From NCBI GenBank assembly GCA_016939335.1, contig JAFGHC010000030.1, positions 15,230 to 79,229 on the forward strand: 64,000 nt of DNA, in the 5' to 3' direction. The notes under the pieces are model-generated. The model saw only the letters and a program-made list of their open reading frames with translations. It had not been told where the DNA came from and made no database searches. This document shows positions 40,703-64,000 of the stretch, piece after piece. Numbering within the stretch: position 1 is the first letter of the stretch; every line of letters begins with the position of its first letter. This stretch comes from Candidatus Saganbacteria bacterium. Its GTDB lineage: Bacteria > Margulisbacteria > WOR-1 > O2-12-FULL-45-9 > XYB2-FULL-48-7. The translations under genes and the position numbers were made by a program.

Positions 40703-40703
40703 A

Positions 40704-41090: not shown

Positions 41091-41193
41091 CTTTTAAGCC
41101 CTCCTAATCGAGAAAATAGAATATTAGCTCAAATATTATCAAAGCAAGAATTCAACCACAACCAAAAAACACTAATAAGTAATACCGATTTCG

Positions 41194-41207
41194 CCCCCCC
41201 CCCCCCC
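41194..41207. repeat. Homopolymeric poly-C/poly-G tract (14 nt)
   Basis: CCCCCCCCCCCCCC at 41194-41207, abutting the TAG stop of 41207..42184 and about 100 nt upstream of the 40704..41090 gene. Confidence 0.9.
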
Positions 41208-42184
41208 TATTTACTGATCTGATCTGTAATCCTGGTTATTTCAAATCCGGATATCGTAGAATCTTTCGATGATACGAAGCCCGTATCGCCAGATTCAAAT
41301 ATTGATTTCGTCGCTTGAATCAATACAGCATCTTTGGTTTTCGAGTCAGAACTTGCTTGAACAAAAGATTGAAACGTCTTTAAACAATTTTCACGATGCT
41401 TATTTAAAGTATATAAGTGCATATTCGCGCTGTAATTTTTTACTATTTGATAAAACACAACCGAGAAAAATGATAAAAGAAGGATTTTTGCTATGAAAAT
41501 TTGTATTGAAAGCTGGAAATCAACCCCCTTTTCCAGGGTAACCATTAGCTGGCTAATAATCCACCATAAAAACCAGCCTATTAGGGCAACCGATACCACT
41601 ACAGCCCAAAACCACTTATCAGCAAGCCTCTTATTTTCTTGAGCCTGAGTCCTAAACACATCGGCGTACCTGCTCACGCCCGTTTCAGCAGACGCCTCTT
41701 TCATCGCATTTATGATTGCATCAGCAGCACGGCTTTTCTCCTCAATGGAATCAAGAAGCGCTTTAGTTCGTCCTTCCAGAAATTTGGCATAATCTTCAAC
41801 TCCTATTTTATCAATAGAATTCTCCAAAAGACTAATTTTCAAAGGATCATAAAACAAATTGGCCATATTCTGGTACTCATTAAGGAATACGTTAATCAAA
41901 TTTTTTCTTTCTGATGCTGGGTCGGACTTATTCTGAGGAACATAATTTTGTATATCTCTTATAATTAAAAGATAATGATTAAACGAAGCAACAATACTGC
42001 TTTTAGTATTTGTTGGCAGAATTGACCATAATGATTCATTCTTTTCTAATCTTCTCCAATTTTGATAAGATTCTTTAAGTAATGGATAGATATCTACAAA
42101 ATCAAAGTCCTTCCCTTCTCTTTTGAGTTGTTCAATGTCTATATTTTTTAATTTTTCAAATTGGTCTTTTAGTTGCTCTATCAT
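41207..42184 (-). CDS. Hypothetical 2-TM protein (N-terminal helical domain, central TM hairpin, C-terminal Ser/Thr-rich tail), low-GC island
   Basis: 325 aa; TM hairpin WFWAVVVSVALIGWFLWWIISQL .. IFIAKILLLSFFSVVFYQIV; no recognisable catalytic motif. Confidence 0.5.
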   Translation of the reverse strand: MIEQLKDQFEKLKNIDIEQLKREGKDFDFVDIYPLLKESYQNWRRLEKNESLWSILPTNTKSSIVASFNHYLLIIRDIQNYVPQNKSDPASERKNLINVFLNEYQNMANLFYDPLKISLLENSIDKIGVEDYAKFLEGRTKALLDSIEEKSRAADAIINAMKEASAETGVSRYADVFRTQAQENKRLADKWFWAVVVSVALIGWFLWWIISQLMVTLEKGVDFQLSIQIFIAKILLLSFFSVVFYQIVKNYSANMHLYTLNKHRENCLKTFQSFVQASSDSKTKDAVLIQATKSIFESGDTGFVSSKDSTISGFEITRITDQISK

Positions 42185-49246: not shown

Positions 49247-49908
49247 CAGCCGCTCATCAGGTCGTAAGTCAGCTCGCCCCGCTCAAGATAGGCCTGGTTG
49301 ACCTCGGTGATCTCCAGTTCGCCGCGGCCCGAGGGTTTGAGCCGCTTGACGATCTCAAAAACCATGCTGTCGAAAAAGTAAATGCCGACCACCGCGAACT
49401 TGCTCTTCGGCTTCTTCGGTTTTTCTTCGATCGAGAGGATCTTGCCGCCCTCGAAGTCGACCACGCCGAAGCGCTGCGGATCGCTTACTTCCTTCAATAA
49501 AATCTTGGCGCCGCGCGCCTGCGCCGCGTATTTTTTAGCGAAGGGGGCAAGCGAATCCTCAAAGACATTGTCGCCCAGGATGACGCACATTTTATCCCTG
49601 CCGACGAAGTTCTCCGCCAATCCCAGCGCCTGCGCGATGCCGCCCGCCCGGTCCTGGACCTTATAAGTGAAACGGCATTTAAAATCATGGCCGCTTCCCA
49701 GCAGGGTGACGATATCACCCATATGGTCAACGCCGGTGACGATCAAGATCTCTTCGATCCCCGCTTCGGTCAGCTTCCCGATCGGGTGGTAGATCATCGG
49801 CTGGCGGCCGACCGGCAGCAGGTGCTTATTCGTCACCTTGGTCAGGGGAAAAAGGCGCGAACCGGTCCCGCCGGCAAGAATGATCCCTTTCATCTTTTGG
49901 CCGGCCAT
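49174..49908 (-). CDS. rfbA: Glucose-1-phosphate thymidylyltransferase (short RmlA-type nucleotidyltransferase)
   Basis: MKGIILAGGTGSRLFPLTKVTNKHLLPV N-terminal signature; about 240 aa. Confidence 0.75.
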   Translation of the reverse strand: MAGQKMKGIILAGGTGSRLFPLTKVTNKHLLPVGRQPMIYHPIGKLTEAGIEEILIVTGVDHMGDIVTLLGSGHDFKCRFTYKVQDRAGGIAQALGLAENFVGRDKMCVILGDNVFEDSLAPFAKKYAAQARGAKILLKEVSDPQRFGVVDFEGGKILSIEEKPKKPKSKFAVVGIYFFDSMVFEIVKRLKPSGRGELEITEVNQAYLERGELTYDLMSGWWSDAGTFESLERASLFVEGKIKL

Positions 49909-50633
49909 TATTTCACCTTCCCGATCATTTTTTTCTGCAGCATGATCAACCGGCCGATCCCTTTCTCGCCCAGGGCGAGCATTTTCTCCAGTTCCGACCT
50001 GGTAAAGGGAGCGGCCTCGGCCGTCCCCTGGAGCTCGACCAGCCGGCCGGTCTCGGTCGCCACCAAATTCATGTCGACTTCGGCGCGGGAATCTTCCTCA
50101 TAATTGAGATCGAGCAGCGTCTCGCCGTCAACGACGCCGACGCTGACGGCGGCAACGAACTCCTTGAGCGGGTTCTCGTCGATCTTGCCATCTTTGAGCA
50201 GCCGGTCAACAGCATCATGCAGGGCGACGAACGAACCGGTAATGGCCGCGGTCCGCGTGCCGCCGTCGGCCTGGATCACGTCGGCGTCGATCAGGACCGA
50301 ACGTTCGCCCAGTTTACCGAGATCGACCACCGCCCGCAGCGCGCGGCCGATCAGCCGCTGGATCTCCTGGGTGCGCCCTTTCGGCCTGCCCGCCCCCTGC
50401 TCGCGCTGGTTGCGCTGCGCCGTGGCGCCGGGGATCATCGCATATTCGGCCGTGACCCAGCCGGAGCCGGACCCGCGCTTGTGGTCGGGGACTTTCTCCT
50501 GGATGCTGGCGGTGCAGATGACCTTGGTCTCCCCCATTTCGATCAGCACCGAGCCAGGCGGATATTTGAGATAGTGGCGGGTGATCCTGGCCGGCCTGGC
50601 TTCGGCCGCGCCCCGGCCGTCGCTCCGCTTCAT
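49908..50633 (-). CDS. rph: Ribonuclease PH
   Basis: 241 aa; [30 protein letters not shown] motifs. Confidence 0.85.
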
Positions 50634-51049
50634 TTTTCGCTCCCGGCCTGGGTGGTCTTCTCCAGCCGTTCCCGGCCGGCCTTGACGGTGCGCAGGATCC
50701 GGGTCGAGGTCGCTTCCAGGTTGGCCAGGACTTCGTCGGCGTACTTATCGGCCCCGTCGCGGATCTCCTTGGCCATCTTGTATGCCTGTTCCATCACTTC
50801 GACCGCCTTGTTCTCGGCCGGCGAACGGCGCTCGTCCTCGGCCGGCAACGCCGTTTCCGCCGGGCCTTCGCTCTTGCCGATCACTTTGACGGCAAACCCG
50901 CTGCCGCCCTGGATCACCATCCTGATCTTGTCGATCACCGTCAGCAATTTCTCCTCATCGACCACGATCTTTTTGGTGAAGGGAAGCTTGGCACTGTCGA
51001 GCACGATCGATTCCAGATGGTCCAGCAAACCTAAAATTTCCGTTCCCAT
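50630..51049 (-). CDS. Hypothetical protein (helical, K/E-rich)
   Basis: 139 aa ORF between rph and coaD; no motif recognised. Confidence 0.35.
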
Positions 51050-51052
51050 TGC

Positions 51053-51538
51053 TTATCCCTTCCTTTGTTTTTTCGCCGCCAGCACGCGGGCGACCGGGTC
51101 CGGCACCAGCCCGGAAACATCGCCCCCCAGACCGGCGATCTGCCTGACAAAACTCGAGCTCAAATAAGAGTAGCGGTAATCGGTCATCAGAAAGACCGTT
51201 TCGATCTCCGGCGCCATGCGCCGGTTGGTCAGCGCCATCTGGAATTCATAATCAAAATCGGAGACCGCCCGCAGGCCGCGCACCACGGCGCAAGCTTTCT
51301 GCCCGCGCACGTACTCGACCAGCAGGCCGTCAAAACTATCGACCGCGACATTGTCGCAGTGCGGGACCGAGGCCTTAAGCATGTCCATCCTTTCCTGGAA
51401 GGAAAAGAGAGGCGATTTCTCGGGGTTCCTGATGACCGCCACGATCACGCGGTCAAAAAGCCTGGCGGCGCGCTCGATCACGTCGAGGTGGCCGCTGGTG
51501 ACCGGGTCAAAACTGCCGGGATAAACCGCTTTTCTCAT
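51053..51538 (-). CDS. coaD: Phosphopantetheine adenylyltransferase
   Basis: 161 aa; YPGSFDPVTSGHLDVIERA (T/HxGH motif). Confidence 0.9.
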   Translation of the reverse strand: MRKAVYPGSFDPVTSGHLDVIERAARLFDRVIVAVIRNPEKSPLFSFQERMDMLKASVPHCDNVAVDSFDGLLVEYVRGQKACAVVRGLRAVSDFDYEFQMALTNRRMAPEIETVFLMTDYRYSYLSSSFVRQIAGLGGDVSGLVPDPVARVLAAKKQRKG

Positions 51539-52092
51539 TGTCCCATCCTGTAGAAGCCCAGGACCGTTTCTCCGTAACGGGCTTCGCGATAACGGGCCAG
51601 TCCGTCATAATCCTCGGCGATCGCCTGCTGGCGCCGGTATTCGGCGACCAGGATGCCGTCATCATTCAACAACCGCGAACCGGCGATCAGCTTGAGGCTC
51701 TTTTCCAGCGCCGGGTCATCGTACGGCGCGCCCAGATAGATCAGGTCGAATTTTGCGCCCCGGCTGTCCAGCAATTTGACCGCCCGCAGCACGTCGAGGG
51801 CGTAAACTTCCGCGCGCTCGGCCAGCCCCGTCAGCGCCAGGTTCTCGCGGACCAGCGCCACCGCCTGGCGGTTCAGCTCCACAAAAAAAACCACACTTGC
51901 CCCGCGGGAGAGCGCCTCGATCCCCACCGCCCCGGTCCCGGCGAAGAGGTCAAGGAAACTGGCCCCGGCGATTTTTGCCGCTAAAATATTAAAAAGTGCG
52001 CCGCGCGCCTGGTCAGTTAAGGGCCGAACTCTCCAGCTTTTTTTTGGAGTTTTCAATCTTCGACCTTTGGCTTTCCCAGCGATTATGCGCAT
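51535..52092 (-). CDS. rsmD: 16S rRNA (guanine966-N2)-methyltransferase
   Basis: 185 aa; MRIIAGKAKGRRLKTP N-terminus, LDLFAGTGAVGIEALSRGA motif I, DPPY-like GAPY. Confidence 0.8.
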   Translation of the reverse strand: MRIIAGKAKGRRLKTPKKSWRVRPLTDQARGALFNILAAKIAGASFLDLFAGTGAVGIEALSRGASVVFFVELNRQAVALVRENLALTGLAERAEVYALDVLRAVKLLDSRGAKFDLIYLGAPYDDPALEKSLKLIAGSRLLNDDGILVAEYRRQQAIAEDYDGLARYREARYGETVLGFYRMGQ

Positions 52093-54028
52093 CTTCAGGG
52101 TCTTTCCCGATCAATTCCAGCGCCGCCACGCGGGCCGCCTGAAGAATTTTCTCGTCCCTTATTATATCAGCCACACGAAAGTTTGGCAAACCGGACTGGC
52201 GCACCCCCAGCATCTCCCCCGGCCCCCGCAGCCGCAGGTCGGCTTCGGCGATCTTGAAACCGTCGCCGGTCTCGATCATCGCCTTCATGCGGGCTCTCGC
52301 CTCCTCCGATTTCGGCTCGCCGACCAGAAAACAATACGACTGTTCGGCCCCCCGGCCGATCCGGCCGCGCAGCTGGTGGAGCTGGGAGAGGCCGAAGCGC
52401 TCGGCGTGCTCGACGACCATGACGGTCGCGTTGGCGACGTCGATGCCGACCTCGATCACCGTGGTGGAAACAAGGATATCGATCTTCCGCTCCAGGAAAT
52501 TTTTCATCACCCGCTCTTTTTCCGCGCTCTTCAGCCGGCCGTGCAGCAAGCCGACCTTGAGTTCGGGAAAGATATCTTTTTGCAGTCGCTCGGCTTCCTC
52601 GACCGCCGCTTTCAGGTCGAGTTCGCTCGACTCCTCGACCAGCGGGCAGACAAAAAAGACCTGCCGCCCCTCTTTGACCTTCAGCCGGATGAACTCGTAA
52701 GCGTCGCTCCGCTTATTTCTCGGCACGTAATAGGTCTTGACCGGCATCCGTCCCGGCGGCAGCTCGTCGATGATCGAGCGGTCAAGGTCGCCGTAGAGGG
52801 TCAGCGCCAGCGAGCGCGGGATCGGCGTCGCGGTCATGACCAGAACGTGCGGCGTGACGCCTTTACTGATAAGCTGCGCCCGCTGGTGGACGCCGAAGCG
52901 GTGCTGTTCGTCGATCACCACCAGCGCCAGGTCGCGGTATTTCACCTTTTCTTCGATCAGGGCGTGCGTGCCGATGATAAGATCGGCCTCCAGCAGCTCC
53001 GCCCGCTTCTTGTCAGACGAAGTGGTTGCGGTCAAAAGATCGACTTTAAGCTTCGTGTCCCTGAATAAGTCTAATAATTTATTGTAGTGCTGCTGGGCCA
53101 GTATCTCGGTCGGCGCCAGGATCGCCGCCTGATAGCCGTTCCTGACCGCCAGCCAGGCCGCCGCCACCGCCACGATCGTCTTCCCCGACCCGACGTCGCC
53201 CTGGAGCAGCCGGTTCATCGGCCGGCCGCCCTGAAGATCCTTATAGATATCCTCCAAGACCCGCTCCTGCGCCGGAGTGAAGCGGAAAGGGAGGAGGGAA
53301 GCAAATTCGGCGCGCGCTTCCTGGCTGACGTCAAACTTGCGCCCTTTCAGTTCTTCTTTATATTCCTTGCGCCGGAGCAGCAGGCCGAGCTGGAAGAGGA
53401 ACAGCTCTTCGTAGGCCAGAAAGTCCCTCGCCCGAGCGATGCTTTCCATCTCCTCGGGCTGATGCAAGGCCAGGAGAGCCTGCCTGACCCTCTCATCGGC
53501 GATCCCGCTCAAATAGTTATCGAGCACGGTCTTGACGACCGAGCGCAGTTTTTTGGGATAAAGCCCTTCGGTCATGGGGTAGCGCGGCATGATCTTGAGG
53601 TTGTCGCCGGTATCGATCTCGAAGTCGCGCACCGAGATCTGCATGACGTGGTCATAGGCGGAGAACTCGACCTTGCCGGAGACGATCAGCTTCATCCCCC
53701 GCTTGAACAGCCGTTTGAGGAACGGCTGGTTGAACCAGACCGCCTGCAGGGTCGCCGTCCGGTCGTTCAGGTAAACTTTTAAGATATGGACGCGGCTGCG
53801 GGTCGGCTGGTCCTCGATCTTCATGATCTCGCCTTTGGCGACGTCAAAAAAAGCGGGGCGGACCTGGATGATCGGCTTGATATTGCGCCGGTCCTCCCAT
53901 TCGCGGGGGACAAGGTAGAGGAGGTCCTCGACCGAAAAAACGCCCAGTCTGGCGAAAATTTTGGCTAATTTCGGCCCGACGCCCTTGACATATTGGATCG
54001 GCGTATCGAGCGTTTTGGTTGGCATCAA
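52013..54028 (-). CDS. recG: ATP-dependent DNA helicase RecG
   Basis: 671 aa; wedge domain, Walker A GDVGSGKT, DEQHRFG, helicase C motifs; 80-nt overlap with rsmD. Confidence 0.85.
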   Translation of the reverse strand: MMPTKTLDTPIQYVKGVGPKLAKIFARLGVFSVEDLLYLVPREWEDRRNIKPIIQVRPAFFDVAKGEIMKIEDQPTRSRVHILKVYLNDRTATLQAVWFNQPFLKRLFKRGMKLIVSGKVEFSAYDHVMQISVRDFEIDTGDNLKIMPRYPMTEGLYPKKLRSVVKTVLDNYLSGIADERVRQALLALHQPEEMESIARARDFLAYEELFLFQLGLLLRRKEYKEELKGRKFDVSQEARAEFASLLPFRFTPAQERVLEDIYKDLQGGRPMNRLLQGDVGSGKTIVAVAAAWLAVRNGYQAAILAPTEILAQQHYNKLLDLFRDTKLKVDLLTATTSSDKKRAELLEADLIIGTHALIEEKVKYRDLALVVIDEQHRFGVHQRAQLISKGVTPHVLVMTATPIPRSLALTLYGDLDRSIIDELPPGRMPVKTYYVPRNKRSDAYEFIRLKVKEGRQVFFVCPLVEESSELDLKAAVEEAERLQKDIFPELKVGLLHGRLKSAEKERVMKNFLERKIDILVSTTVIEVGIDVANATVMVVEHAERFGLSQLHQLRGRIGRGAEQSYCFLVGEPKSEEARARMKAMIETGDGFKIAEADLRLRGPGEMLGVRQSGLPNFRVADIIRDEKILQAARVAALELIGKDPEDAHNRWESQRSKIENSKKKLESSALN

Positions 54029-54209
54029 GTTAATTTTACCATAACCGGGAGGATATCAGGTTATCAGAGAATCAGGGCGCAGATGATCAGTAAATCAGAA
54101 GATCAGGAAGAATAACTGATAACCTGGTATTCTGATCTCCCACCCTCTGATATCCTGATATTCTGATATCCACATTTGCGCACCTGTCGTCAATAATTAA
54201 AACGCGGAT

Positions 54210-54238
54210 TTGACAGTGGCCGTTTTTTATAATAAAAT
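54210..54238 (+). promoter_or_regulatory. Sigma-70 promoter of rpmB (TTGACA-17-TAAAAT), near-leaderless
   Basis: TTGACA 54210-54215, TAAAAT 54233-54238, ATG at 54248. Confidence 0.5.
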
Positions 54239-54247
54239 AAATCCATC

Positions 54248-54448
54248 ATGGCAAGAAAATGTATCAGCTGCGGCAAAAAGCCGGTGCGGGGGAACGCGGT
54301 CTCCCATTCCAACCGCAAGAGCATACGCTTTTTCAACCCCAACCTGCAAAAGGTGAATATCGTACTGGCAGGCAAGAAAACTAAAGCCTACGTCTGCACC
54401 AAGTGTTTGAAAGCCGGCAAAGTTGTTAAGGCCCCGGTTCGCGCTTAA
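54248..54448 (+). CDS. rpmB: 50S ribosomal protein L28
   Basis: 66 aa; MARKCISCGKKPVRGNAVSHSNRKSIRFFNPNLQ matches the L28 family signature. Confidence 0.85.
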   Translation: MARKCISCGKKPVRGNAVSHSNRKSIRFFNPNLQKVNIVLAGKKTKAYVCTKCLKAGKVVKAPVRA

Positions 54449-54929
54449 ACCGCTGCGTGGCGATCTCGTCCATGAACTTGGCTTCCAGGGTGTTCATTAA
54501 TTTAGTGTATTCCTCCAGCTTCCTTTCCTTGTGCTTCTCCATGATCTTCTTGTCCTTCATCGATTCGACCAGCTTGGCCCGCTGCTCCTCCAGCAGCTTG
54601 CTCGCCTCGATCACTTTCTCGATCTGCTCGTCGAGGTCGGTCTTTAAGACGTCAAGATGGGCCCGGCGCCGCAGCACTTTCTCGAAATTGCTGATCGGCC
54701 CCTGGCGGAAAACGTCGCGCAGTTCCTCTTCTTTGCCTTTTTTCTCTTCTTTGATCGCTTCTTCCTTCTGCTTCTCCGTCAGATAGGCGCGGTTCTTCTC
54801 GGCGAATTTCTCCTGCTCTTTCTTCTCGTGGATCTCCCTGACCTTGAGCACCGCCGCGAGGTCGTATTTGAACTTCTTGCCCGGTTTCGGTTGTCTGGCC
54901 ACTTTTGTCTGTCCTCTAACTCCCCACAC
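54426..54929 (-). CDS. fliJ: Flagellar export chaperone FliJ-like coiled-coil protein
   Basis: 167 aa, K/E-rich coiled coil immediately downstream of fliI; the track start (GTG) lies inside the palindrome, so the true start is probably downstream. Confidence 0.5.
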   Translation of the reverse strand: MWGVRGQTKVARQPKPGKKFKYDLAAVLKVREIHEKKEQEKFAEKNRAYLTEKQKEEAIKEEKKGKEEELRDVFRQGPISNFEKVLRRRAHLDVLKTDLDEQIEKVIEASKLLEEQRAKLVESMKDKKIMEKHKERKLEEYTKLMNTLEAKFMDEIATQRFKREPGP

Positions 54930-54949: not shown

Positions 54950-56266
54950 CTAACTAAATATCCCGATCAGCCTGTCCACCGTCTCTTCAAAATCGATCTT
55001 CTCGAACGTCCCCTGCTTCAGGAAGTCGTTGACCTGATCGATCTTCGACAGCGCGTAATCGATCTTGGGATTGCTCCCCTTGACGTAAGCGCCGATGTTG
55101 ATCAGGTCCTCGGCCTCCGCGTAGCGCGCCAGGACCTCGCGCAGCTTGCCGGCCGCCTCTTTGTGCTCGTCGGAGACCAGGTTGACCATCAGCCGGGAGA
55201 CGCTGGGCGGCACGTCGATCGCCGGATAATGGTTGCGGGCCGCCAGGTCGCGCGACAGGACGATGTGCCCGTCGAGGATCGAGCGCGAATGGTCGGCGAT
55301 CGGCTCGTTGAAATCGTCCCCCTCGACCAGGATCGTGTAGAAAGCGGTGATACTTGCGCGCTCCGACGTGCCGGAGCGCTCCATCAGGCGCGGCAGCAGC
55401 GCAAAGACCGAGGGCGTGTAGCCTTTGGTCGTCGGCGGCTCGCCGGCCGCCAGGCCGATGTCGCGCTGGGCCATGGCGAAGCGGGTGACCGAGTCCATCA
55501 TCAGGATGACGCTCTTGCCGCTGTCGCGGAAGTACTCGGCGATGGCGGTCGCCACAAAAGCGGCCTTGAGGCGGATGAGCGGCGGCAGGTCGGAAGTCGC
55601 CACCACGACGACCGATTTCTTCAGCCCCTCCTCGCCCAGCGATTCTTCGATAAAATCGCGCACTTCCCGGCCGCGTTCGCCGACCAGGCAGATGACGTTG
55701 ACCTCGGCCTCGGCGTTGCGGGCAACCATGCCCATCAAAGTTGATTTGCCGACGCCGGAGCCGGCAAAGATGCCGATGCGCTGGCCTTTGCCGATGGTCA
55801 GCAGGCCGTCGATGGCGCGGACGCCGCAGCGCATCACTTCGGTCACGCGCGGCCGTTTGACCGGATCGGGCGGATCGGCGTCGAGCGGCCGCTCGATCTC
55901 CCCCAGGACCGGCCCCTTGCCGTCGATCGGCTCGCCCAGCCCGCCCAGGACCCGGCCGAGCACGTCGGGGCCGACGCGCACGCGGAGCGGTTTGCCGACC
56001 GCCGTCACCTGGGCGCCGGGCGAGATGCCGGCGGTCGAGCCGAGCGGCATCAGCAGCACGCGGCTCTCCTTAAAACCGACCACTTCGCCGAAGGCGTCGC
56101 GGTTCTCTTTTTCGAGGCGGATGGCGCAGAGGTCGCCGACCGAAACGCCGCCGACCTGCGCTTCGATGATCAGGCCGACGACCTGGACCACCTTGCCGAT
56201 GACTTTGACCAGGTCGGCGCGCTCGACCGCGTTGTGGTATTTCTCGAAATCGAGCGCCGTGGCCAT
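54950..56266 (-). CDS. fliI: Flagellum-specific ATP synthase
   Basis: 438 aa; Walker A GIFAGSGVGKST, Walker B region; F1/T3SS ATPase family. Confidence 0.9.
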   Translation of the reverse strand: MATALDFEKYHNAVERADLVKVIGKVVQVVGLIIEAQVGGVSVGDLCAIRLEKENRDAFGEVVGFKESRVLLMPLGSTAGISPGAQVTAVGKPLRVRVGPDVLGRVLGGLGEPIDGKGPVLGEIERPLDADPPDPVKRPRVTEVMRCGVRAIDGLLTIGKGQRIGIFAGSGVGKSTLMGMVARNAEAEVNVICLVGERGREVRDFIEESLGEEGLKKSVVVVATSDLPPLIRLKAAFVATAIAEYFRDSGKSVILMMDSVTRFAMAQRDIGLAAGEPPTTKGYTPSVFALLPRLMERSGTSERASITAFYTILVEGDDFNEPIADHSRSILDGHIVLSRDLAARNHYPAIDVPPSVSRLMVNLVSDEHKEAAGKLREVLARYAEAEDLINIGAYVKGSNPKIDYALSKIDQVNDFLKQGTFEKIDFEETVDRLIGIFS

Positions 56267-56267
56267 T

Positions 56268-56978
56268 TTACGGCGTCTCTTCGGGGGCGACCTTCTGAAG
56301 GGCTTCTTCGATCGCTTTCAGCTTGGTGGAGATGCGCGCGTCGACAAAACCGAGGTTGGTCTCGATCACGCAGCCGCCCGGCTCGACGTTTGAATCCTCG
56401 AGGATGGAAAAGCTCTTGACGCCGTCGAGCATGCCGGCCAGCCGGTCTTTGTAGCGCTTGAGGTACTCGGCGTCGTCGCGGTTGACCCGGACGATGATCT
56501 GTTCGCGGTCGGAGACCCGGCCGATCGCCTCGGAAACGATGTTGAGCGAGACGTCGCGGTGCAGGGAGACTTCGGAGCGGATGATCTGCTCGGCGATCTT
56601 GAGCGAGAGGCGGAGGATCTCGTTCTCGGCGTCCCTGACGATCCGCTTGCGCTCCTTGACCGCTTCGTTCAGCGTCGCCAGCGCTTCTTCCAGCCGGGCG
56701 GTGCTCTCCTCGCGGCCGGCGCGCCGGCCCTCCTCCCGCGCCTGCTCGATCACCCCGGCGGCGGTCTGCTGCGCGTGTTCGATGATCTTCTGCGCTTCGC
56801 CCTTGACCTGCGAAATATCGGCGCCGGGCGGCAGGTTGATGGCCAAACGGGCCACGGCCGGCGCCGGGCGGCGCGGACTAAGGGTGACGGGCGCCTTCTC
56901 GATCTGCAGCGTCCCCTTGTCTTCCAGATAATCCCGCTTGATCAGTCCCATAAATTTATTGGAAAACTTTGCCGGCAA
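56268..56978 (-). CDS. fliH: Flagellar assembly protein FliH
   Basis: 236 aa; position between fliG and fliI, E/R-rich central region and C-terminal FliH/YscL-like domain. Confidence 0.65.
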   Translation of the reverse strand: MPAKFSNKFMGLIKRDYLEDKGTLQIEKAPVTLSPRRPAPAVARLAINLPPGADISQVKGEAQKIIEHAQQTAAGVIEQAREEGRRAGREESTARLEEALATLNEAVKERKRIVRDAENEILRLSLKIAEQIIRSEVSLHRDVSLNIVSEAIGRVSDREQIIVRVNRDDAEYLKRYKDRLAGMLDGVKSFSILEDSNVEPGGCVIETNLGFVDARISTKLKAIEEALQKVAPEETP

Positions 56979-57423
56979 AAAGCTCCCGGAATTTAGCCTC
57001 GAGTTTTGGCCGGAGCGGATTGGTCCTCAAGCCGGCATAAAGCTCTTCGATCACGCCCTTTTCCCGCGGCAGCGCGGCCAGCACTTCGCTCCGCTCGCTC
57101 TCCGGGAGCAGGGTGAGCAAAAAAGCGGTCGTCTGCGGCCGTTCATAGATCAGCGCGGGGAACGAGCGCCGCGGCGCGGCCGGGCGGCCGGGGGGCGGCG
57201 CTTCGGCCGTACGGCCGGGCGGCAGAGCGAGAAAACTCTGGTAGTCTTCCAGCACTTCGGACAGGGCCTGGGGCGACGGGGTCGGCAGATGGTTGATCCC
57301 GGCCGCGATCAGGTCGGCGATCTCCTCGGGCAAATAGCGGAGCACCCGGGAGGAAACGTCGGCCCCCAGGATCGACAAGAAAATCGTGGCTTTTTCCCGT
57401 CCGGTCAATGCCATGTCATTCAC
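56956..57423 (-). CDS. fliG: FliG-like protein, N-terminal (FliF-binding) domain only (155 aa)
   Basis: ALTGREKATIFLSILGADVSSRVLRYLPEEIADLIAAGINHLPTPSPQALSEVLEDY aligns with the FliG N-domain (T. maritima GRRKAAVLLVALGPEKAAQVMKHLDEETVEQLVVEIANIG..). There is no room for middle or C domains between fliF and fliH. Confidence 0.6.
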   Translation of the reverse strand: MNDMALTGREKATIFLSILGADVSSRVLRYLPEEIADLIAAGINHLPTPSPQALSEVLEDYQSFLALPPGRTAEAPPPGRPAAPRRSFPALIYERPQTTAFLLTLLPESERSEVLAALPREKGVIEELYAGLRTNPLRPKLEAKFRELFAGKVFQ

Positions 57424-58912
57424 TCAACCAGCGTTTCAAAAGTTCGGCGATCTGCTCGGGATTGCGTTCGGCCAGGTTCCTGACCTGGTCGAGCTTGGAG
57501 CCGCGCTCGCCCGGCGGCGGGGGCGGCAAGGGCGGCTCGGTCAGCGGCAGTTCGGTTCCCGGCCGCGGGCGCAGCGCGCTCAAGCCCCAGATCACGAGCA
57601 GAATGGCGACGATGCCGATGGCCCACCAGAGCAGTTTGAGGAAAGAAACGTAATAAAAGATCTTTCTCATGCCGGCCTGCTTCGGCGGCGCCGGCTTCGG
57701 CTTGACCGGCGACAGGGCCAGCGGCGGGTTGGCCAGGTGGAACGGCACCCGCTGGACCTGGATCCGGTCGCCCCGCTTCTTGTTGTAATTGATCGCGGCC
57801 GCCACCGTCGTGTAAGTCGCCTGCTTCAGGTTCTTGTTGAAATCGACGCGGTTGTCGACCAGGACGATGGCGGTCAGTTTCTTGATCTTCAGCTCCTTGG
57901 CCCTGATCTCGCTGTCTTTGGCCGGCTTGACGTCGGCCGTCACCTTGACAATAATGCTGTTGAGCGGATAGAAACGGTTGAGCAGTTCCTGCGCTTTGCC
58001 CGAAAGATCAGCCTCCAGCTCCTTTTTGGTCTGGACCTTGAGCCGCAGCCGTTCTTCGGCGGAAAGGCTGGCCGGAGCGGTCAGCGGCAAAGCCGCTTCA
58101 ACCGACGGGGCCGCCTTGACGGCGGCCGCTTTCTCCGGCGGCATTTCTTTTTTGATGATCACTTCCGGCGTAGGCGCGGCCGCTTCGAGGGTCAGCATCA
58201 CGACCGGCTCCTCGGCCGGCGTCGGCGCGGGGGCGTATTTCAGCGGCGGCCGGCCCGTCTTCAGCGTCAGGATCCGGCCCGAATCGTCGACCACCGTCAC
58301 GTTCTCCGGCTGCAGGTTCTCCACGCTGTTCGCCACCAGGTGGACGATCCCGTCGATCTTGGCCGGCGCCAGCTCGAAGCCGGAGCGGAGGCGGATCAGC
58401 ACCGCGGCGGTCACCGGAGCGGTGGTCGCGGCGAAAAGCTGGGTCTCGGGAATGACCACCTGGACCCGGGCGTCCTCGATCCCCTCGATGCGCTGGATGT
58501 TGCGGGCCAATTCCCCCGAGATCGCGCGGATCAGCTGGATGCGCCGGTCGAAATCGGTCGCCCCCAGCCGCGATTCGTCGAAGATCTCCCAGCCGACCTG
58601 GCCGCCGGCCGGCAATTTCTTTTCGGCCAGGCCGAGCCGGGCCTGGTCTGCCTTCTCTTTCGGCACGGCGACCGAGCGCCCTTCGTCGCGGATCTCGTAA
58701 GGGATCGCCAGTTCTTTGAGCCGGGCGATCACGTTGGCGGCGTCTTTCAGCTCCAGGTTGGTGTAGATGACGGTCTGACCGACTTTCTTGGGGCCGGCCA
58801 GCGGCGCGCAGCCCCGGAAGAGGAAAAAGAGCATGGAAAAGACAACAACGACGACCACACCGCCGACCAGGAAAAGCCGTCGCGGATCAAAACCGGCCGC
58901 TGCTTCTGCCAT
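57416..58912 (-). CDS. fliF: Flagellar M-ring protein FliF
   Basis: 498 aa; N-terminal TM, YscJ/FliF ring-forming domain, C-terminal TM and cytoplasmic tail. Confidence 0.8.
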   Translation of the reverse strand: MAEAAAGFDPRRLFLVGGVVVVVVFSMLFFLFRGCAPLAGPKKVGQTVIYTNLELKDAANVIARLKELAIPYEIRDEGRSVAVPKEKADQARLGLAEKKLPAGGQVGWEIFDESRLGATDFDRRIQLIRAISGELARNIQRIEGIEDARVQVVIPETQLFAATTAPVTAAVLIRLRSGFELAPAKIDGIVHLVANSVENLQPENVTVVDDSGRILTLKTGRPPLKYAPAPTPAEEPVVMLTLEAAAPTPEVIIKKEMPPEKAAAVKAAPSVEAALPLTAPASLSAEERLRLKVQTKKELEADLSGKAQELLNRFYPLNSIIVKVTADVKPAKDSEIRAKELKIKKLTAIVLVDNRVDFNKNLKQATYTTVAAAINYNKKRGDRIQVQRVPFHLANPPLALSPVKPKPAPPKQAGMRKIFYYVSFLKLLWWAIGIVAILLVIWGLSALRPRPGTELPLTEPPLPPPPPGERGSKLDQVRNLAERNPEQIAELLKRWLSE

Positions 58913-59006: not shown

Positions 59007-59402
59007 TTAGACCTGCATCTGGGTTATTTCTTTTATCGTCGAGACCGTCGTATTGACGGTCGTGACCGCCAGGGTCTCCAGCACGCTCAATTTCGACTGG
59101 GCGATCATCACGTCGGCCAGTTCCGCCTGACCATGGGCATATTTATCGATCAACTGATTGGTGTAAACCTCGGCGCGGCTGACGCCGTTGAGCTTATCGA
59201 TCGCCTGGCCCAGCAGGTCATCAAAGGGGTTGCCGGAAAAAGCGGTCCGGGCCGCCGGCGCGGAGGCCGCCGTCGCCGACGGGAAAACCGGCGCCTGGGC
59301 CACCACGGGCGCCTGATCCAGAAAATTATTACCATTATTGCTGTCGCCGATCAGCTGGGCCAGTCTTTCTTCCGCGCTGAGCGGTCCGATCGCCTCGATC
59401 AT
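59007..59402 (-). CDS. fliE: Flagellar hook-basal body complex protein FliE
   Basis: 131 aa; C-terminal ..ELADVMIAQSKLSVLETLAVTTVNTTVSTIKEITQMQV typical of FliE. Confidence 0.75.
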   Translation of the reverse strand: MIEAIGPLSAEERLAQLIGDSNNGNNFLDQAPVVAQAPVFPSATAASAPAARTAFSGNPFDDLLGQAIDKLNGVSRAEVYTNQLIDKYAHGQAELADVMIAQSKLSVLETLAVTTVNTTVSTIKEITQMQV

Positions 59403-59411: not shown

Positions 59412-59852
59412 TTATTGTATCGACAGCGTGTCCTGCGCCATCTTCTTGGTCGAGTTGAACGCCGTAATGTTAGCATTATAAAGCTGCGACGCATAGGTCA
59501 GATCGACCATCTCGTTCGCCAGGTTGACATTGGGCATCAGGACGAAACCCTGCGCGTCGGCGTCGGGATGCCCCGGCTTGTAGACCTTTTGGAACGGGGT
59601 CGAATCCTCGACCACGTCGACCACTTCGACCCCGCCCGCCATCCTGGCGGCCAGCCGGTCCTGCGCCAAGGAAAGCTGCCGGGCAAAGTCAAGCGGCTTT
59701 TCCGAGAGCACCGCGACCTTGCGCCGGTACGGGCCGCCGTAGATCGTGCGGGTGGTGTTGATATTGGCGATATTGGAAGAGATCAGCTCCAGCGTCCGGC
59801 GCTGCGCCTCGATCCCCTCGACGCTGATCTCAAACGCTTCGTTGATGCCCAT
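59412..59852 (-). CDS. flgC: Flagellar basal-body rod protein FlgC
   Basis: 146 aa; N-terminal SGIEAQRRTLELISSNIANINTTRT and C-terminal rod-protein heptads. Confidence 0.85.
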   Translation of the reverse strand: MGINEAFEISVEGIEAQRRTLELISSNIANINTTRTIYGGPYRRKVAVLSEKPLDFARQLSLAQDRLAARMAGGVEVVDVVEDSTPFQKVYKPGHPDADAQGFVLMPNVNLANEMVDLTYASQLYNANITAFNSTKKMAQDTLSIQ

Positions 59853-59861: not shown

Positions 59862-60167
59862 CTACCTCTTCCCCTGCGTGGCGATCGTCCGCAGGACGCC
59901 GATCTTACTGGTCATCAGCTTGACGTAAGCCGAGTATTTGCCGGAATTTTCCGCCAGGGCCGCCAGCTCGTCCTCCAGGATGACGTCCTTGCGGTCCCGC
60001 CGCCTGACCGCCCGCTCCAGCTGCTCGTCAAAAGTCAGCGCCGCGTAGCCGGGGGTCTTGGCGTTGGCGATGTTCTGCGCGATGACCGCCTGACGCATCG
60101 TCGCCAGGCGCAGCGCCCGTTCCAGTGAATTAAAAGCCTCGTCAAAGATCTCCAGCGACCCGCTCAT
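59862..60167 (-). CDS. flgB: Flagellar basal-body rod protein FlgB
   Basis: 101 aa; QAVIAQNIANAKTPGY rod-protein N-terminal signature. Confidence 0.75.
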   Translation of the reverse strand: MSGSLEIFDEAFNSLERALRLATMRQAVIAQNIANAKTPGYAALTFDEQLERAVRRRDRKDVILEDELAALAENSGKYSAYVKLMTSKIGVLRTIATQGKR

Positions 60168-60946
60168 TTCAACCTCTTCTTAATCGTCTCGATCGCCCGG
60201 CTCAGGAGCCGGCAGACCTTGGGCCGCGAGAGCCGCAGCTTGGCCGCGATCGTCTTCTGGTTGATCCCCTTGTGAAAAAAAAGCTCGACCACCTGTTTCT
60301 GCAGCGGCGGCAGGCCGTAGACCTCCGCCCTGATCTTGTTCTTGAGCTCGGCAAAATCGACCTCGGAAGCGGGAGTGATCTCGCCCGGCACCTGCGCTTC
60401 CACCCCCGCGTCGGACATCTCCTCGATCGAGAGGAGGTACATCAGGGCCGAGGCGGAAACGATCTTCTTGATCCGCTTGAGCGCCGTCTTGAATTCGTCC
60501 TCGGTCAATTCCTTTTTCTCGATCAGCGCGTCCTCGGCCCGCTCCTTCCTGGAGATGACCGAGCTGACCCCCTTCTTGGCCAGGTCGCGCACCATCACCT
60601 GGACCCGGTAGGGGACCGGGTTGTAATTCTTGAGGCCGTCGAGGATCTCGCCGCGGATCCGGTAGGAAGCGTAGGTTTCGAACTTGACGCCGCGCTTCGG
60701 GTCGAAATTATCCCACGCTTTCATCAGGCCGACGGTGCCGTCGGAAACCAGGTCGTCGTACTCGATGTTGGGCGGCAAACCCTTGCCCGAGACCAGCGAA
60801 GCGATCGAGTGCACCAGCGGCATGTAGGCCTCGACCGAAGCGTGCGTCTCGACCTTTCTTCTTAGGGGCGGTTTTTTAATTTTACTCATTGTTCCCTTCA
60901 GCCGCCGGCCGCTCAACGGGCAGGCCGAGCTGGCTCCGGGCCGCAC
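60164..60946 (-). CDS. fliA: RNA polymerase sigma factor FliA (sigma-28)
   Basis: Sigma-70 region 2 (GLMKAWDNFDPKRGVKFETYASYRIRGEILD) and region 4 HTH (QKTIAAKLRLSRPKVCRLLSRAI); probable start MSKIKKPP (about 60889). Confidence 0.8.
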   Translation of the reverse strand: MRPGASSACPLSGRRLKGTMSKIKKPPLRRKVETHASVEAYMPLVHSIASLVSGKGLPPNIEYDDLVSDGTVGLMKAWDNFDPKRGVKFETYASYRIRGEILDGLKNYNPVPYRVQVMVRDLAKKGVSSVISRKERAEDALIEKKELTEDEFKTALKRIKKIVSASALMYLLSIEEMSDAGVEAQVPGEITPASEVDFAELKNKIRAEVYGLPPLQKQVVELFFHKGINQKTIAAKLRLSRPKVCRLLSRAIETIKKRLK

Positions 60947-61202
60947 TCAACTGGTTCTGGGCCAACTGCCGGGCGAACTGCTCGACCATGATATCGGAAT
61001 TGAAGGCCGTAAAGAACGACCCCTCTTCGTTCTTGTCGGGGTCAAACGAGAGCGCCGGCGCCTGAAGCGACTGCTTGAGCATTTCCTTGTAAAAGATCGT
61101 CAGGAATTCCCGGCTGACCTCCTCCCCCCTCCCCTGCGCCTGGGCGGCCTCAATCAGCGGAGCCAGGTCCTTGACCGAGGAAACGGGGTTGATCGCTTCC
61201 AC
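60882..61202 (-). CDS. flgJ: Rod-binding protein (FlgJ N-terminal domain-like, no muramidase domain)
   Basis: 106 aa; FLTIFYKEMLKQSL matches the Rod_binding motif (F..FLKEMLK). Confidence 0.55.
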   Translation of the reverse strand: MEAINPVSSVKDLAPLIEAAQAQGRGEEVSREFLTIFYKEMLKQSLQAPALSFDPDKNEEGSFFTAFNSDIMVEQFARQLAQNQLSAARSQLGLPVERPAAEGNNE

Positions 61203-61204: not shown

Positions 61205-62365
61205 TTAGATGACCTCCAGCGGCGCCTTGAGCGCGCCGCTCTTCTTCATCGCCTGCAGGATCGAGATCAGGTCCTTGGGCGAGGCGCCGATCGTGTTGAG
61301 CGCCCGCACCAGCACCGCCAGGCTGGGCGCGGCCGGCACCAGCGTCAGCTGCGCCGACGAACGCTTGAGGCGCGCCTTGGTCGACGACTGGTAACGCTGC
61401 TGGCCGCCGGCCGTGTAATCGGCCGTGTCGGTCGTATCGCCGACCGAATAGATCGAAACGTCGCCGATGGCGACATCGATGCCGCTGTAAGAGACGGCCA
61501 CCGGGGCGATCACCACGTTCTCGCCGATCACCACGGTGCCGGTCCGTTCATTGATCACGATCTTGGCCACGGTGTCGGGTGAGACGGCCAGGTTCTCGAT
61601 CCGCGCGATCATGGGGACCAGTTCGCCCTCGATCGCCACGGTCACGGTGGCCGCGTCCTGGGGAGTAGCGGAAAAACCGGCATTGCTGATGGCGGCCGCC
61701 ACCCGGCTGGCGGTGGTAAAGTCCGGTTCGTTCAAAACGATAGTGATCCCGCCTTTCCCTTCAAGCGTCACCGGCACTTCTTTTTCGACCAGCGCCCCTT
61801 CCGGTATCCGGCCGACGGTCACCTGGCGCGGCCGGACGTAGGGAACGCTGGGATACGAGGCATCGGCACCGACCACCAGGTTCCCCTGCGCCACGGCGTA
61901 AACCTGGTCATCAACCCCCTGGAGCGGCGTGATGAGGAGCGTCCCGCCCTGCAGCGAGGTGGCGTCGCCGAGCGACGAAACGGTCACGTCAAGTTTCTGG
62001 CCGGAGCTGACAAAGGGCGGCAGCACCGCCGTGACCATGACCGCCGCCACGTTGCGCGACCTGAAATCGACCGACGGCGGCACGACCCCCATGCGCGACA
62101 TCAGGTTGGTGACCGCCTGCTGGGTAAAGCTCGACTGGTTGCGGTCGCCGGTATTGTTCAGGCCGACCACCAGGCCAAAGCCCATCAACTGGTTCTCGCG
62201 CGCCCCCAGGATGTGGGCAATGTCTTTAAGACGGACCGCCGGAGAAGCGCCATAAGCGACAGCGACAAATGACAAATTACAAACAACAAACAATATCAAA
62301 ATAATAAATATTTTAAAATTTAAAACTTGGAAATTGTTTGTCATTTGATGCTTGTTATTTGTCAT
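61205..62365 (-). CDS. flgI: Flagellar P-ring protein FlgI
   Basis: 386 aa; signal peptide, RLKDIAHILGARENQLMGFGLVVGLNNTGD signature. N-terminus has the MTNN..MTNN direct repeat; start may be the second Met (62344). Confidence 0.85.
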   Translation of the reverse strand: MTNNKHQMTNNFQVLNFKIFIILILFVVCNLSFVAVAYGASPAVRLKDIAHILGARENQLMGFGLVVGLNNTGDRNQSSFTQQAVTNLMSRMGVVPPSVDFRSRNVAAVMVTAVLPPFVSSGQKLDVTVSSLGDATSLQGGTLLITPLQGVDDQVYAVAQGNLVVGADASYPSVPYVRPRQVTVGRIPEGALVEKEVPVTLEGKGGITIVLNEPDFTTASRVAAAISNAGFSATPQDAATVTVAIEGELVPMIARIENLAVSPDTVAKIVINERTGTVVIGENVVIAPVAVSYSGIDVAIGDVSIYSVGDTTDTADYTAGGQQRYQSSTKARLKRSSAQLTLVPAAPSLAVLVRALNTIGASPKDLISILQAMKKSGALKAPLEVI

Positions 62366-62379: not shown

Positions 62380-63003
62380 CTAAAAAATCCAGTTAAAGAG
62401 CCTCGTCAGCCAGCCGGGCTGGGCGGTATCGGAAACGGCGCCGCTCCCGCTCACGGTCAGCTCGGCGTTGGCCACCTGATAGGAATAGACGGTATTGGAC
62501 CCGGCTATGTCCTTGGGCCGGACGGTGCCGGTCAGCGTGATCTCCTGCATCTCATCGTTGACGTTGACCTTGTGGCGCCCCTTGATCAGCAGGTTGCCGT
62601 TGGGCAGGACCTCGATCACCCAGGCGGCGATCCGCGCCTGAACGTTGTTCCCCCGCACCGTCGAGCCGTCGCCGGTGTAAAGATTCTGCAGCTGGCCGTT
62701 CGCCTGGGTGTTCAAGCCGATGACCGGCGCCAGCCGCTGCATCGTGTGGGTGAACTTGGCGCTCAAATTGTCGGTCACGTTGGCCTTGGTCGTCGCCTGG
62801 TTCTTGGCCGAAGTGTTCTCCAGGATCACGACGTTAATGATGTCGCCGACCTTGTAAGCTTTGGCGGGGGAATAGGGCGAAGCGCTGTCCTCGTTCCAGA
62901 GCGAATTGGCACCCGCCGCTCCGGCCAGGGCCAGCCAGCAAACGCCAAGCATTAAAAAATACTTTTGACTTTTGACTTTTGACTTTTGACTTATTGTTCT
63001 CAC
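62380..63003 (-). CDS. flgH: Flagellar L-ring protein FlgH
   Basis: 207 aa; GTG start overlapping the flgA stop (alternative ATG at 62952); YKVGDIINVVILENTSA..LTVSGSG motifs of FlgH. Confidence 0.8.
   Translation of the reverse strand: MRTISQKSKVKSQKYFLMLGVCWLALAGAAGANSLWNEDSASPYSPAKAYKVGDIINVVILENTSAKNQATTKANVTDNLSAKFTHTMQRLAPVIGLNTQANGQLQNLYTGDGSTVRGNNVQARIAAWVIEVLPNGNLLIKGRHKVNVNDEMQEITLTGTVRPKDIAGSNTVYSYQVANAELTVSGSGAVSDTAQPGWLTRLFNWIF
62962..62989. repeat. Heptanucleotide tandem repeat (CTTTTGA)x4 at the 5' end of flgH
   Basis: ACTTTTGACTTTTGACTTTTGACTTTTGACTT read from sequence. On the minus strand it encodes QKSKVKSQK if the GTG start is used. The 7-nt unit is not a multiple of 3. 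Confidence 0.85.
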
Positions 63004-63797
63004 TGGACCTTGACCTCGACTTCCCCGGCGGCGACAACTCTGGCCGGCAAAATTTTATTGGAATCCTTGCGCTTGACCTTGATCTCCGCGCCGAGCACCC
63101 CGTCCTCCTCCGCCCGGGCCTTGACCTTGACCGTCAGGCCCGGCGCCGCCACTGTCAGCGTCACTTCGTCGCCGCGGTGCACCAGCGGCACCGCGCCGAT
63201 CATCCATTCAAAGACCGTACTGTTGTCGGGGACCGAGATCTTGGCCTCCTGGCTGATCAGGCGGTCAAAAGCCGTGAAATATTTCGGCGGCAAGAGCGCC
63301 ACGTCGCGCTCGTCAAGCTTGAGGTCATCCGGCCCGATCAGCGTCCCTTTCTTGATCAGCCGGGCCGCCGCCACGACGTTCTTGAACACCTCGACCTTGG
63401 CCCGCACCAGGTATTTACGGCCGCCGCTTTCGCAGGAAGCCACGAGCGGGAAGACCACGCTGCCGACCGGACGAAAATCGGGGTAGACCTCGAGCACCTC
63501 CAAGCTGACCGTTTCGGGCAGTTCCTTCATCTCGGCAAAAATACCCTCCGCCTGCCTGAAGGTCAGGTCAATCCGGTCGTTGGCCCAGTCGGGATACCTG
63601 CCCACGACGTAGTTCCTGATCGTCTCGCTGACCCGCTGCTCCGGGTCGTCGAGCGCGCGACAAAACGACAAATGGCCAAGGACCAATGACCAATTAACGA
63701 TTATTGCCAGCAGCAGCAACGCCCTGCCGACCGGACAAAACCGCAGAATTAATTCTGCGGTTTTTGTTCTTGCTTTAAATTCAATCGTGCCCTTCAT
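63000..63797 (-). CDS. flgA: Flagellar basal-body P-ring formation protein FlgA (SAF domain)
   Basis: 265 aa; signal peptide, C-terminal SAF-like ..GDEVTLTVAAPGLTVKVKARAEEDGVLGAEIKVK.. Confidence 0.65.
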   Translation of the reverse strand: MKGTIEFKARTKTAELILRFCPVGRALLLLAIIVNWSLVLGHLSFCRALDDPEQRVSETIRNYVVGRYPDWANDRIDLTFRQAEGIFAEMKELPETVSLEVLEVYPDFRPVGSVVFPLVASCESGGRKYLVRAKVEVFKNVVAAARLIKKGTLIGPDDLKLDERDVALLPPKYFTAFDRLISQEAKISVPDNSTVFEWMIGAVPLVHRGDEVTLTVAAPGLTVKVKARAEEDGVLGAEIKVKRKDSNKILPARVVAAGEVEVKVQ

Positions 63798-63802
63798 TGC
63801 CC

Positions 63803-64000
63803 TATTGCTTCATTTTGTCGAGCGAGGCCAGCATTCCCTGATAGCTGGAGACCGCCTTGGTCACCGTGTCAAAGACCCGCTGGACGGCCACCATTCTCAT
63901 CATCTCGGAAATGACGTTGACGTTGCTCTGCTCCAGCGAGTACTGCACCAGTGAGCCATAACCATTCTGGGCGGCGGTGCCGATCGACTCTTCGCCCGCC
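63803..64000 (-). CDS. flgG: Flagellar basal-body rod protein FlgG (C-terminal part; 5' end beyond window)
   Basis: Reverse-complement translation ends ..GYGSLVQYSLEQSNVNVISEMMRMVAVQRVFDTVTKAVSSYQGMLASLDKMKQ*, matching the FlgG C-terminus (..LEMSNVNVVEEMVNMI..QRAYE..). Confidence 0.7.

Follow-up and report, generated by a model that had tools for sequence, protein, structure and literature searches.

A short, conserved FliG without the torque domain in Saganbacteria, probable adaptor of a non-rotating basal body

FliG is, to our knowledge, the universal torque-receiving rotor protein of the flagellum. In Salmonella it is divided into D1 (residues 1-67), which binds FliF_C, D2 (73-99), a hairpin that completes the neighbouring D1, D3 (107-186), which binds FliM_mid, D4 (196-233), known as ARM_C, and D5 (243-331), which carries the torque helix and contacts MotA/B (Singh et al. 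2024, PMC11087270). Here we describe the short gene found in the place of fliG in a 64,000-nucleotide stretch of a Candidatus Saganbacteria genome (assembly GCA_016939335.1, contig JAFGHC010000030.1, positions 15,230 to 79,229), hereafter the window. The gene (fliG', 56956-57414, minus strand) encodes mini-FliG, which consists of D1, a Pro-rich disordered linker in place of D2, and D3, while D4 and D5 are absent. This uncultured lineage probably builds a flagellum-like basal body that is unable to spin. What is new is that a remodelled mini-FliG is conserved throughout a whole environmental lineage. In literature searches, no earlier account of a short FliG or of flagella in Saganbacteria turned up, apart from a table of KEGG Orthology (KO) calls (PMC6349859).

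Reduced flagellar systems have been described elsewhere. Lysobacter enzymogenes OH11 is non-flagellated and keeps the genes of the flagellar secretion system of type III (T3SS), the rod, the P/L-ring, the hook and FliN, with no FliG or FliM identified, and FliI-dependent secretion of FlgD and toxins has been shown experimentally (PMC7688988). That case is a recent loss within a gammaproteobacterial genus, where FliH and FliJ were also not found and no remodelled FliG was described, whereas in Saganbacteria the state is lineage-wide and comes with a dedicated mini-FliG. Buchnera aphidicola has basal bodies without a flagellin filament, which are proposed to be exporters (PMC8109811). It differs in being an obligate endosymbiont with a reduced genome. 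As far as is known, Buchnera also retains full-length FliG, FliM and FliN.

In the scheme of Abby & Rocha 2012 (PMC3459982), the first step from flagellum to injectisome was the loss of motility-specific genes with export kept, as in the ancestral/Myxococcales intermediate of the non-flagellar T3SS (NF-T3SS). As in their study, conservation over deep divergence argues here for function. Unlike the NF-T3SS clade, the Saganbacteria system keeps the FliE/FlgB/FlgC rod, P/L rings and hook, and is therefore a flagellar-type system and not an NF-T3SS member. The cluster in the window, with its FliE, FlgB and FlgC rod genes and P/L rings, does not have the composition of an injectisome; no secretin or SctD was seen in Pfam scans of the window, and no SctD, SctC or SctK at the Saganbacteria cluster. 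In injectisomes, the chain SctD-SctK-SctQ-SctL-SctN is a non-rotating link that joins the inner-membrane ring to the ATPase and to the sorting platform of SctQ, which is FliM/N-like. There is no homology between SctK and FliG, and the likeness of mini-FliG to this adaptor chain is a functional analogy only.

Like canonical FliG (Salmonella, Thermotoga, Aquifex; PDB 8umd, 5tdy, 3soh, 3hjl), mini-FliG lies in the slot between fliF and fliH, and both sequence and fold show its D1 and D3 to be homologous to those of FliG. The FliF docking helix is conserved, and the EHPQ motif has a counterpart of its type in ERPQ. Unlike canonical FliG, mini-FliG has no D2, D4 (ARM_C) or D5, carries Leu at the position of R160, and is only 152 amino acids (aa) long against approximately 330 aa. 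D1, the FliF C-terminus-binding part of FliG_N, has four helices and spans 57229-57414 (residues 4-65 of the listed open reading frame, ORF). The linker at the D2 site covers 57160-57228 (residues 66-88), and D3, the FliG middle domain or ARM_M, has five helices and lies at 56959-57159 (residues 89-155), all on the minus strand. The C-terminal end of the protein coincides with the D3/D4 boundary, at around position 186 of the hidden Markov model (HMM) of FliG.

The Pfam FliG_N model matches residues 6-63 with its positions 2-59 of 104 (E 5.9e-11). An earlier note on this DNA, made from the sequence alone, had already assigned the first 60 or so residues to FliG_N. The D2 armadillo hairpin is missing, as seen both in a deletion of about 28 residues (hhalign) and in the end of the FliG_N match at 59 of 104, and FliG_C (PF01706, D4-D5 with the charged torque helix) has no Pfam match in mini-FliG. 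Against TIGR00207 the protein scores 35.2 bits, with a cut-off of 226.7, which places it outside the FliG equivalog. The MgtE N-terminal domain shares a Pfam clan with the FliG domains.

An alignment of 32 family members (A1) starts with a block of extreme conservation at the N-terminus, continues with a Pro-rich segment that varies in length and ends in a second conserved block, which opens with an invariant E-R-P-Q; it has 33 invariant columns in all. When compared to 25 full-length FliGs with hhalign, this alignment gave a probability of 99.5 % (E 1.2e-22) and was colinear, residues 5-127 of the short FliG falling onto 7-157 of FliG with one gap of about 28 residues and ERPQ over EHPQ. An HMM built from full-length FliGs finds two matches per short FliG, at positions ~7-67 and within ~105-186, the second reaching 185/186 in several orthologues; no match past position 190 was found in the short FliGs or in ~700 kb of related loci. 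Over 175 unique short FliGs, the linker has 0-64 residues (median 25) and a Pro content of 24 %.

In the AlphaFold2 model built on A1, four helices (residues 8-61) are followed by a disordered segment, whose predicted local distance difference test (pLDDT) score is below 50 at 67-81, and then by five helices at 89-148 with pLDDT of about 90. Foldseek on this alignment-based model agrees with the FliG assignment, and the D3 fold is taken from it; a single-sequence AlphaFold2 prediction of D3 alone was poor and its Foldseek search uninformative. The earlier note had seen a FliG reduced to its N-terminal FliF-binding domain, followed by a Pro-rich remainder unrelated to the FliG middle and C-terminal domains. 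The Pro-rich part is there and the C-terminal torque domain is indeed missing. The rest of that description does not hold, as D3 with its EHPQ-type motif is kept according to hhalign, the HMM and the AlphaFold2 model, and it is D2, the second half of the classical N-terminal domain, that was lost.

The ERPQ motif (57133-57144, minus strand; ORF residues 94-97) is the counterpart of the FliM-binding EHPQ(R) motif and aligns with EHPQ of Salmonella and Aquifex FliG. It is invariant in the 32 aligned sequences and present in 152 of the 175 unique short FliGs. E, P and Q are invariant in A1 and His is replaced by an invariant Arg, while the canonical R160 position holds Leu (L128), a correspondence counted by hand on the alignments. 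Judging from the sequence, the FliM-binding face of D3 is conserved but remodelled, and binding through it is a prediction.

The FliF C-terminal helix (...NPEQIAELLKRWLSE; 57419-57493, minus strand) bears the motif NPE+IA.LLK.WL[ST]E, kept in 29 loci. It is expected to be the docking site of D1, by analogy with the Salmonella C-ring structures (PMC11087270).

As for the limits of the gene, the listed ORF (56956-57423) has 155 aa counted from a GTG at 57423, the length given in the earlier note. The NCBI entry P0001 ("hypothetical protein JW873_05850, Candidatus Saganbacteria") has 152 aa and is 100 % identical to mini-FliG; this entry and all orthologues begin three residues later, at ATG 57414, which is likely the true start. 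The ORF between fliF and fliH is thus real and short, as had been claimed, with a likely length of 152 aa followed by a TAA stop. The product is labelled "flagellar motor switch protein FliG" in IMG and "hypothetical protein" in NCBI.

The ATG at 57414 lies 1 nt past the TGA of fliF (57416-58912, minus strand, 498 aa, MS ring; Pfam YscJ_FliF 6.8e-57 and YscJ_FliF_C 3.2e-7, TIGR00206 1.5e-54), and 4 nt separate the TAA from the ATG of fliH (56268-56951, minus strand; Pfam FliH 1.2e-21, NF005198 3.4e-38). For the latter gene the listed ORF begins at TTG 56978, while orthologues begin with MGLIKRD, pointing to an ATG start at 56951. Since these junctions are tight and fliH fills the rest of the space, no frameshift can restore a FliG of 330 aa. 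The earlier note was right that the room between fliF and fliI is too small for a full FliG plus FliH, and nothing is hidden in it. A frameshift there, which the note had allowed for, and a hidden exon were both rejected on these grounds and by the short length conserved in more than 250 proteins under purifying selection. A FliF-FliG fusion of 643 aa in locus L010 was also discarded, as an artefact of a masked run of N.

A search of 5.8 billion proteins returned at least 255 homologues of mini-FliG, from Saganbacteria, WOR-1 and "Margulisiibacteriota" metagenome-assembled genomes (MAGs). Among the matches listed, all 120 have 123-168 aa (119 of them 145-168) and are 55-100 % identical. A profile search of 1.8 billion cluster representatives gave 262 matches, with approximately 60 clusters (50 % identity) of 140-190 aa matching the profile from end to end; full-length FliGs enter this list only from E ~1e-9 on, colinear over the N-terminal and middle domains. 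Among GTDB species representatives mini-FliG is present in 32 genomes, one of them a curated complete genome of 1.67 Mb, and every one with a taxon name (28/28) belongs to Saganbacteria/WOR-1.

Mini-FliG is directly downstream of fliF at every locus examined. Next comes fliH wherever the flank was seen, except in the contig of P0189, which has fliF upstream and fliH not adjacent. Even members whose match to the profile is as weak as E 1e-9 to 1e-12 keep this synteny, and across relatives the arrangement of 15-17 genes is strictly conserved and the gene junctions are tight. Down to ~30 % identity, length and architecture stay the same. Starting from P0189, the most divergent member, a search for members in other phyla found three proteins only, of which P0140, the one with context, has the Saganbacteria synteny.

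Pairwise ratios of nonsynonymous to synonymous substitution (dN/dS), with dS near saturation, are 0.10-0.18 for mini-FliG, 0.10-0.15 for fliH, 0.14-0.28 for fliF and 0.07-0.11 for fliI. These patterns indicate that mini-FliG is a selected gene of fixed architecture and not a decaying fragment.

A wider view of the lineage comes from KO calls published by Matheus Carnevali et al. 2019 (PMC6349859, Suppl. Data 2), which cover 26 genomes of Saganbacteria (HO1A to RX8C). Most of the 26 have FlhA, FlhB, FliH, FliO/P/Q/R, FliN/FliY, FliF, FliE, FlgB and FlgC, as well as FlgG, FlgH, FlgI, FlgA, FlgE, FliJ and FliA. None has FliG (K02410), FliM, FliK, FlgK, FliD, FlgM, FlgN, CheC or CheD, and for K02410 there is not even a call flagged "check_length". 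FlgL was called in one genome, with a length flag, and CheR in only two. Genes missing in Saganbacteria are present in Margulisbacteria and flagellated Melainabacteria in the same table. Five other Melainabacteria (AS1A, AS2A, LO5A, LO5B, HO7A) are without FliG, FliM, FliN, FlgH, FlgI, FlgK/L and FliD and keep the gate, FliF, rod and FlgE (PMC6349859); this second flagellar set, from a neighbouring lineage, is reduced in a different way. The table covers neither MotA nor MotB, and it is the sole source for FlhA/B, FliOPQR, FliN and FlgE in Saganbacteria, whose genes would form a second cluster.

The FliK KO evidently misses a divergent FliK-like protein of relatives. In many of them this protein (Flg_hook 3.1e-10) and one resembling the FlhB C-terminus (TIGR00789) head the cluster, followed by flgF (L005 343-1941, L043 8709-10387, L046 8676-10366). 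Homologues of the FlhB-like protein belonged to this same first cluster in four of four contigs. The window stops inside flgG, so a cluster head of this kind would lie beyond it.

The missing FliG domains were not found nearby either. No ORF resembling FliG D4/D5 was detected in ~700 kb of flanking DNA from 32 GTDB representatives and metagenome contigs, and no FliG_C-like ORF within 10 kb of the cluster in the 32 genomes. Queries with E. coli FliN, FliP, FliQ and MotA and with a FliG_C consensus gave no phmmer match in 42 sequences (700 kb), a weak negative for divergent proteins. The stator proteins MotA/MotB are absent from the window and 41 loci. The earlier note had reported no fliM, fliN or motAB in the window, and Pfam scans agree, as they found no flagellar gene beyond those of the cluster.

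With a probability of roughly 0.6, we consider mini-FliG to be the sole FliG of Saganbacteria and the machine to be a non-rotating, flagellum-derived hook-basal body plus export apparatus, with mini-FliG as no more than an adaptor. The earlier note had offered two options, a separate rotor-switch gene elsewhere or a cluster without a canonical torque interface. The second is favoured, with D4-D5 absent from the protein and from the related DNA, and no K02410 or FliM in the 26 genomes.

Going by the Salmonella C-ring structures, the loss of D5 would leave MotA with no torque helix. With D2 and D4 missing, the inter-subunit domain swaps that knit the FliG ring would be gone as well, so that each MS-ring subunit would hold a single D3 on a leash, with mini-FliG tethered 1:1 to FliF. 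By way of the ERPQ face of D3, which is conserved, mini-FliG would tie a partner in the cytoplasm to FliF. A FliN/FliY-type protein is the likeliest candidate, favoured because no FliM was called, and would in turn bring in FliH-FliI; alternatively, D3 may bind FliH itself.

The apparatus would comprise the flagellar T3SS gate, FliHIJ, MS ring, rod, P/L rings, hook and the FliK-like and FlhB-like proteins, without filament, junction proteins or FliM. It may serve protein export or form a fixed surface structure. Hook length may still be measured and the substrate switch kept, to judge from the FliK-like and FlhB-like proteins; with FlgK, FlgL and FliD gone, this switch could release non-flagellar cargo. 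A fuller picture is more tentative, and we hold it with less than even confidence: that these free-living relatives of Cyanobacteria possess an ancient, vertically inherited, non-rotary secretion machine that derives from the flagellum and spans the envelope, with a hook of controlled length, and in which a D1-linker-D3 tether joins each FliF to a FliN-type sorting platform.

Some points count against a non-rotating machine with mini-FliG as sole FliG. That a separate FliG_C, a divergent FliM or flagellin is absent is read from the KO calls on MAGs. The rows for flagellin and FliS are blank there for every genome, including ones the authors call flagellated, which makes them uninformative and the table unreliable for flagellin. 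A machine that turns would likewise fit with an EHPQ-like motif and with P/L rings, the bushings of a rotating rod. Lastly, the contacts of D1 with FliF_C and of D3 with its partner are predicted from homology.

The alternative that survives best, itself unlikely, is that D4-D5 and perhaps FliM come from separate, possibly divergent genes elsewhere, which would give a complete rotating flagellum with mini-FliG as the MS-ring-proximal half of a two-piece rotor. FliM binding is the known job of the EHPQ-type motif that is near-invariant in D3, and the retained P/L rings, FliA-type sigma factor, FliK-like protein and FlgE would suit such a flagellum, as would a KO table that misses flagellin even in flagellated genomes. 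The same table, however, gives none of the 26 genomes K02410, FliM, FlgK or FliD, with FlgL a single length-flagged call, CheC and CheD absent and CheR in two genomes only. The 10-kb flanks in the 32 genomes hold no FliG_C-like ORF, and R160 of EHPQR is replaced by Leu. A separate rotor-switch gene elsewhere is thus unlikely in view of the published KO annotation (PMC6349859).

Still less probable is rotation driven through an interface other than D5, for instance by stators or another motor that would act on D3, a FliN ring or a lineage-specific protein; the hook by itself could then be the propeller or a periplasmic/surface rotor. Such a drive would be in keeping with rod, P/L-ring bushing and hook genes under selection and with the high conservation of D3. 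We know of no precedent, however, for torque input without FliG_C. Filament, junction and chemotaxis genes are lacking in the KO table, and a flexible linker of variable length would be a poor transmitter of torque.

We give little credence to mini-FliG being an accessory paralogue, that is, a FliG-like assembly or regulatory protein (brake, clutch or placeholder) beside a normal full-length FliG. Extra FliG paralogues exist in some bacteria, such as FliG1/FliG2 of Borrelia. Mini-FliG, however, fills the orthologous fliF-fliG-fliH slot wherever both flanks were seen, a second fliG was called in 0/26 genomes, and the nearest full-length FliGs in the 1.8 billion representatives are only remote (E >= 1e-9). 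The least probable view, a flagellar cluster being lost with the short ORF as a functionless truncated pseudogene remnant, could draw on the many flagellar genes missing from the lineage and on the NCBI name "hypothetical protein", but is effectively refuted already by the low dN/dS (0.10-0.18, with saturated dS), the constant length and architecture at ~30 % identity, the strict 15-17-gene synteny with tight junctions and the 33 invariant columns in 32 sequences.

The flagellar operon, on the minus strand, occupies the 3' end of the window in the order flgG (cut by the edge), flgA, flgH, flgI, a 106-aa ORF, a FliA/WhiG-type sigma factor gene, flgB, flgC, fliE, fliF, the short ORF, fliH, fliI and fliJ, with rpmB and recG after the fliJ end. 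The 3' end of flgG (distal rod) is at 63802-64000, an open frame to the edge with a Flg_bbr_C-like C-terminus and a syntenic flgF-flgG in L002 and L004. Next are flgA (P-ring chaperone, 63000-63797; ChapFlgA on syntenic genes in L002 and L004) and flgH (L ring, 62380-63003; FlgH on syntenic genes in the same two loci). These two overlap in the window, with no panD between them; in several Saganbacteria panD (aspartate decarboxylase) is found there (L005 4298-4645, L007 4031-4381, L042 760-1128, L046 12859-13227).

The flgI gene (P ring, 61205-62365) was assigned from a precomputed Pfam FlgI match on the identical gene in L001 and FlgI on syntenic genes in L002 and L004. Its ORF opens with an odd Asn/Lys-rich repeat (MTNNKHQMTNNFQVLNFKIF...) ahead of a signal-peptide-like stretch, and either the leader is unusual or the true start may lie downstream of the annotated one. 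The 106-aa ORF after it (60882-61202) is probably a FlgJ-type rod-binding protein, from its position and a motif seen by eye. The window copy has no Pfam/NCBIfam match, and its L046 orthologue has a faint one to Rod-binding PF10135.

The sigma factor of the FliA/WhiG family is encoded at 60164-60946 (TIGR02479 3.6e-38, below its cut-off; Pfam Sigma70_r2 and r4). It is followed by the proximal rod genes flgB (59862-60167) and flgC (59412-59852), both with Pfam Flg_bb_rod / Flg_bbr_C precomputed on identical genes in L001, and by fliE (59007-59402; Pfam FliE 2.8e-9). Past fliH lie fliI, the T3SS ATPase (54950-56266; Pfam ATP-synt_ab 1.2e-89, T3SS_ATPase_C 1.2e-27), and fliJ (54426-54929; Pfam FliJ 4.9e-8). 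The block fliJ - rpmB (opposite strand) - recG - rsmD-like methyltransferase - coaD - small ORF - RNase PH, at 49908-54448, is syntenic with the flagellar cluster in L002, L004, L005, L007 and L042, which are deeply diverged Saganbacteria. This conserved flank speaks for a cluster that has long been inherited vertically at a single chromosomal site.

Pfam scans of 40 more ORFs across 1-51 kb found no further flagellar genes, and these ORFs belong to sugar and nonulosonic-acid biosynthesis, radical-SAM and housekeeping genes. A very large sugar and nonulosonic-acid cluster (1289-29195, minus strand) includes NeuB, several radical-SAM/SPASM and B12-radical-SAM enzymes, FkbM and C-methyltransferases, glycosyltransferases and two flippases. 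At 15252-18023 (minus strand), a DegT/DnrJ/EryC1 aminotransferase of 923 aa is split by an intein that includes a LAGLIDADG homing endonuclease (Intein_splicing 1.9e-17, LAGLIDADG_3 1.4e-16), an unusual intein host gene. The ORFs 4360-5370 and 5501-7171 have a GC content at third codon positions (GC3) of 0.42 and 0.32, when neighbours have ~0.75, which suggests recent acquisition. Three adjacent ORFs of low GC3 (0.31-0.37) at 40337-42184 (minus strand) are a probable foreign island; the two that were scanned, 40337-40702 and 41207-42184, have no Pfam match. Furthermore, a Fic-domain protein (Fic 2.2e-16) with a C-terminal MarR-like helix-turn-helix is encoded at 38915-39934 (plus strand).

If the non-rotating reading is true, a flagellum was exapted for export independently of the injectisome, and Saganbacteria offer a natural experiment that splits the assembly/export role of FliG from its torque role. 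A lineage-wide, selected FliG without torque and ring-forming domains, with rod, bushing rings and hook kept, would show what FliG contributes apart from rotation, and that contribution would be the coupling of the MS ring to the export platform. The system would be a living example of the stage with motility lost and export kept that has been postulated for the origin of the injectisome. Mini-FliG, small and well defined, lends itself to direct tests in Salmonella or E. coli. Despite the automatic label of motor switch protein, the prediction is that Saganbacteria are non-motile by flagella.

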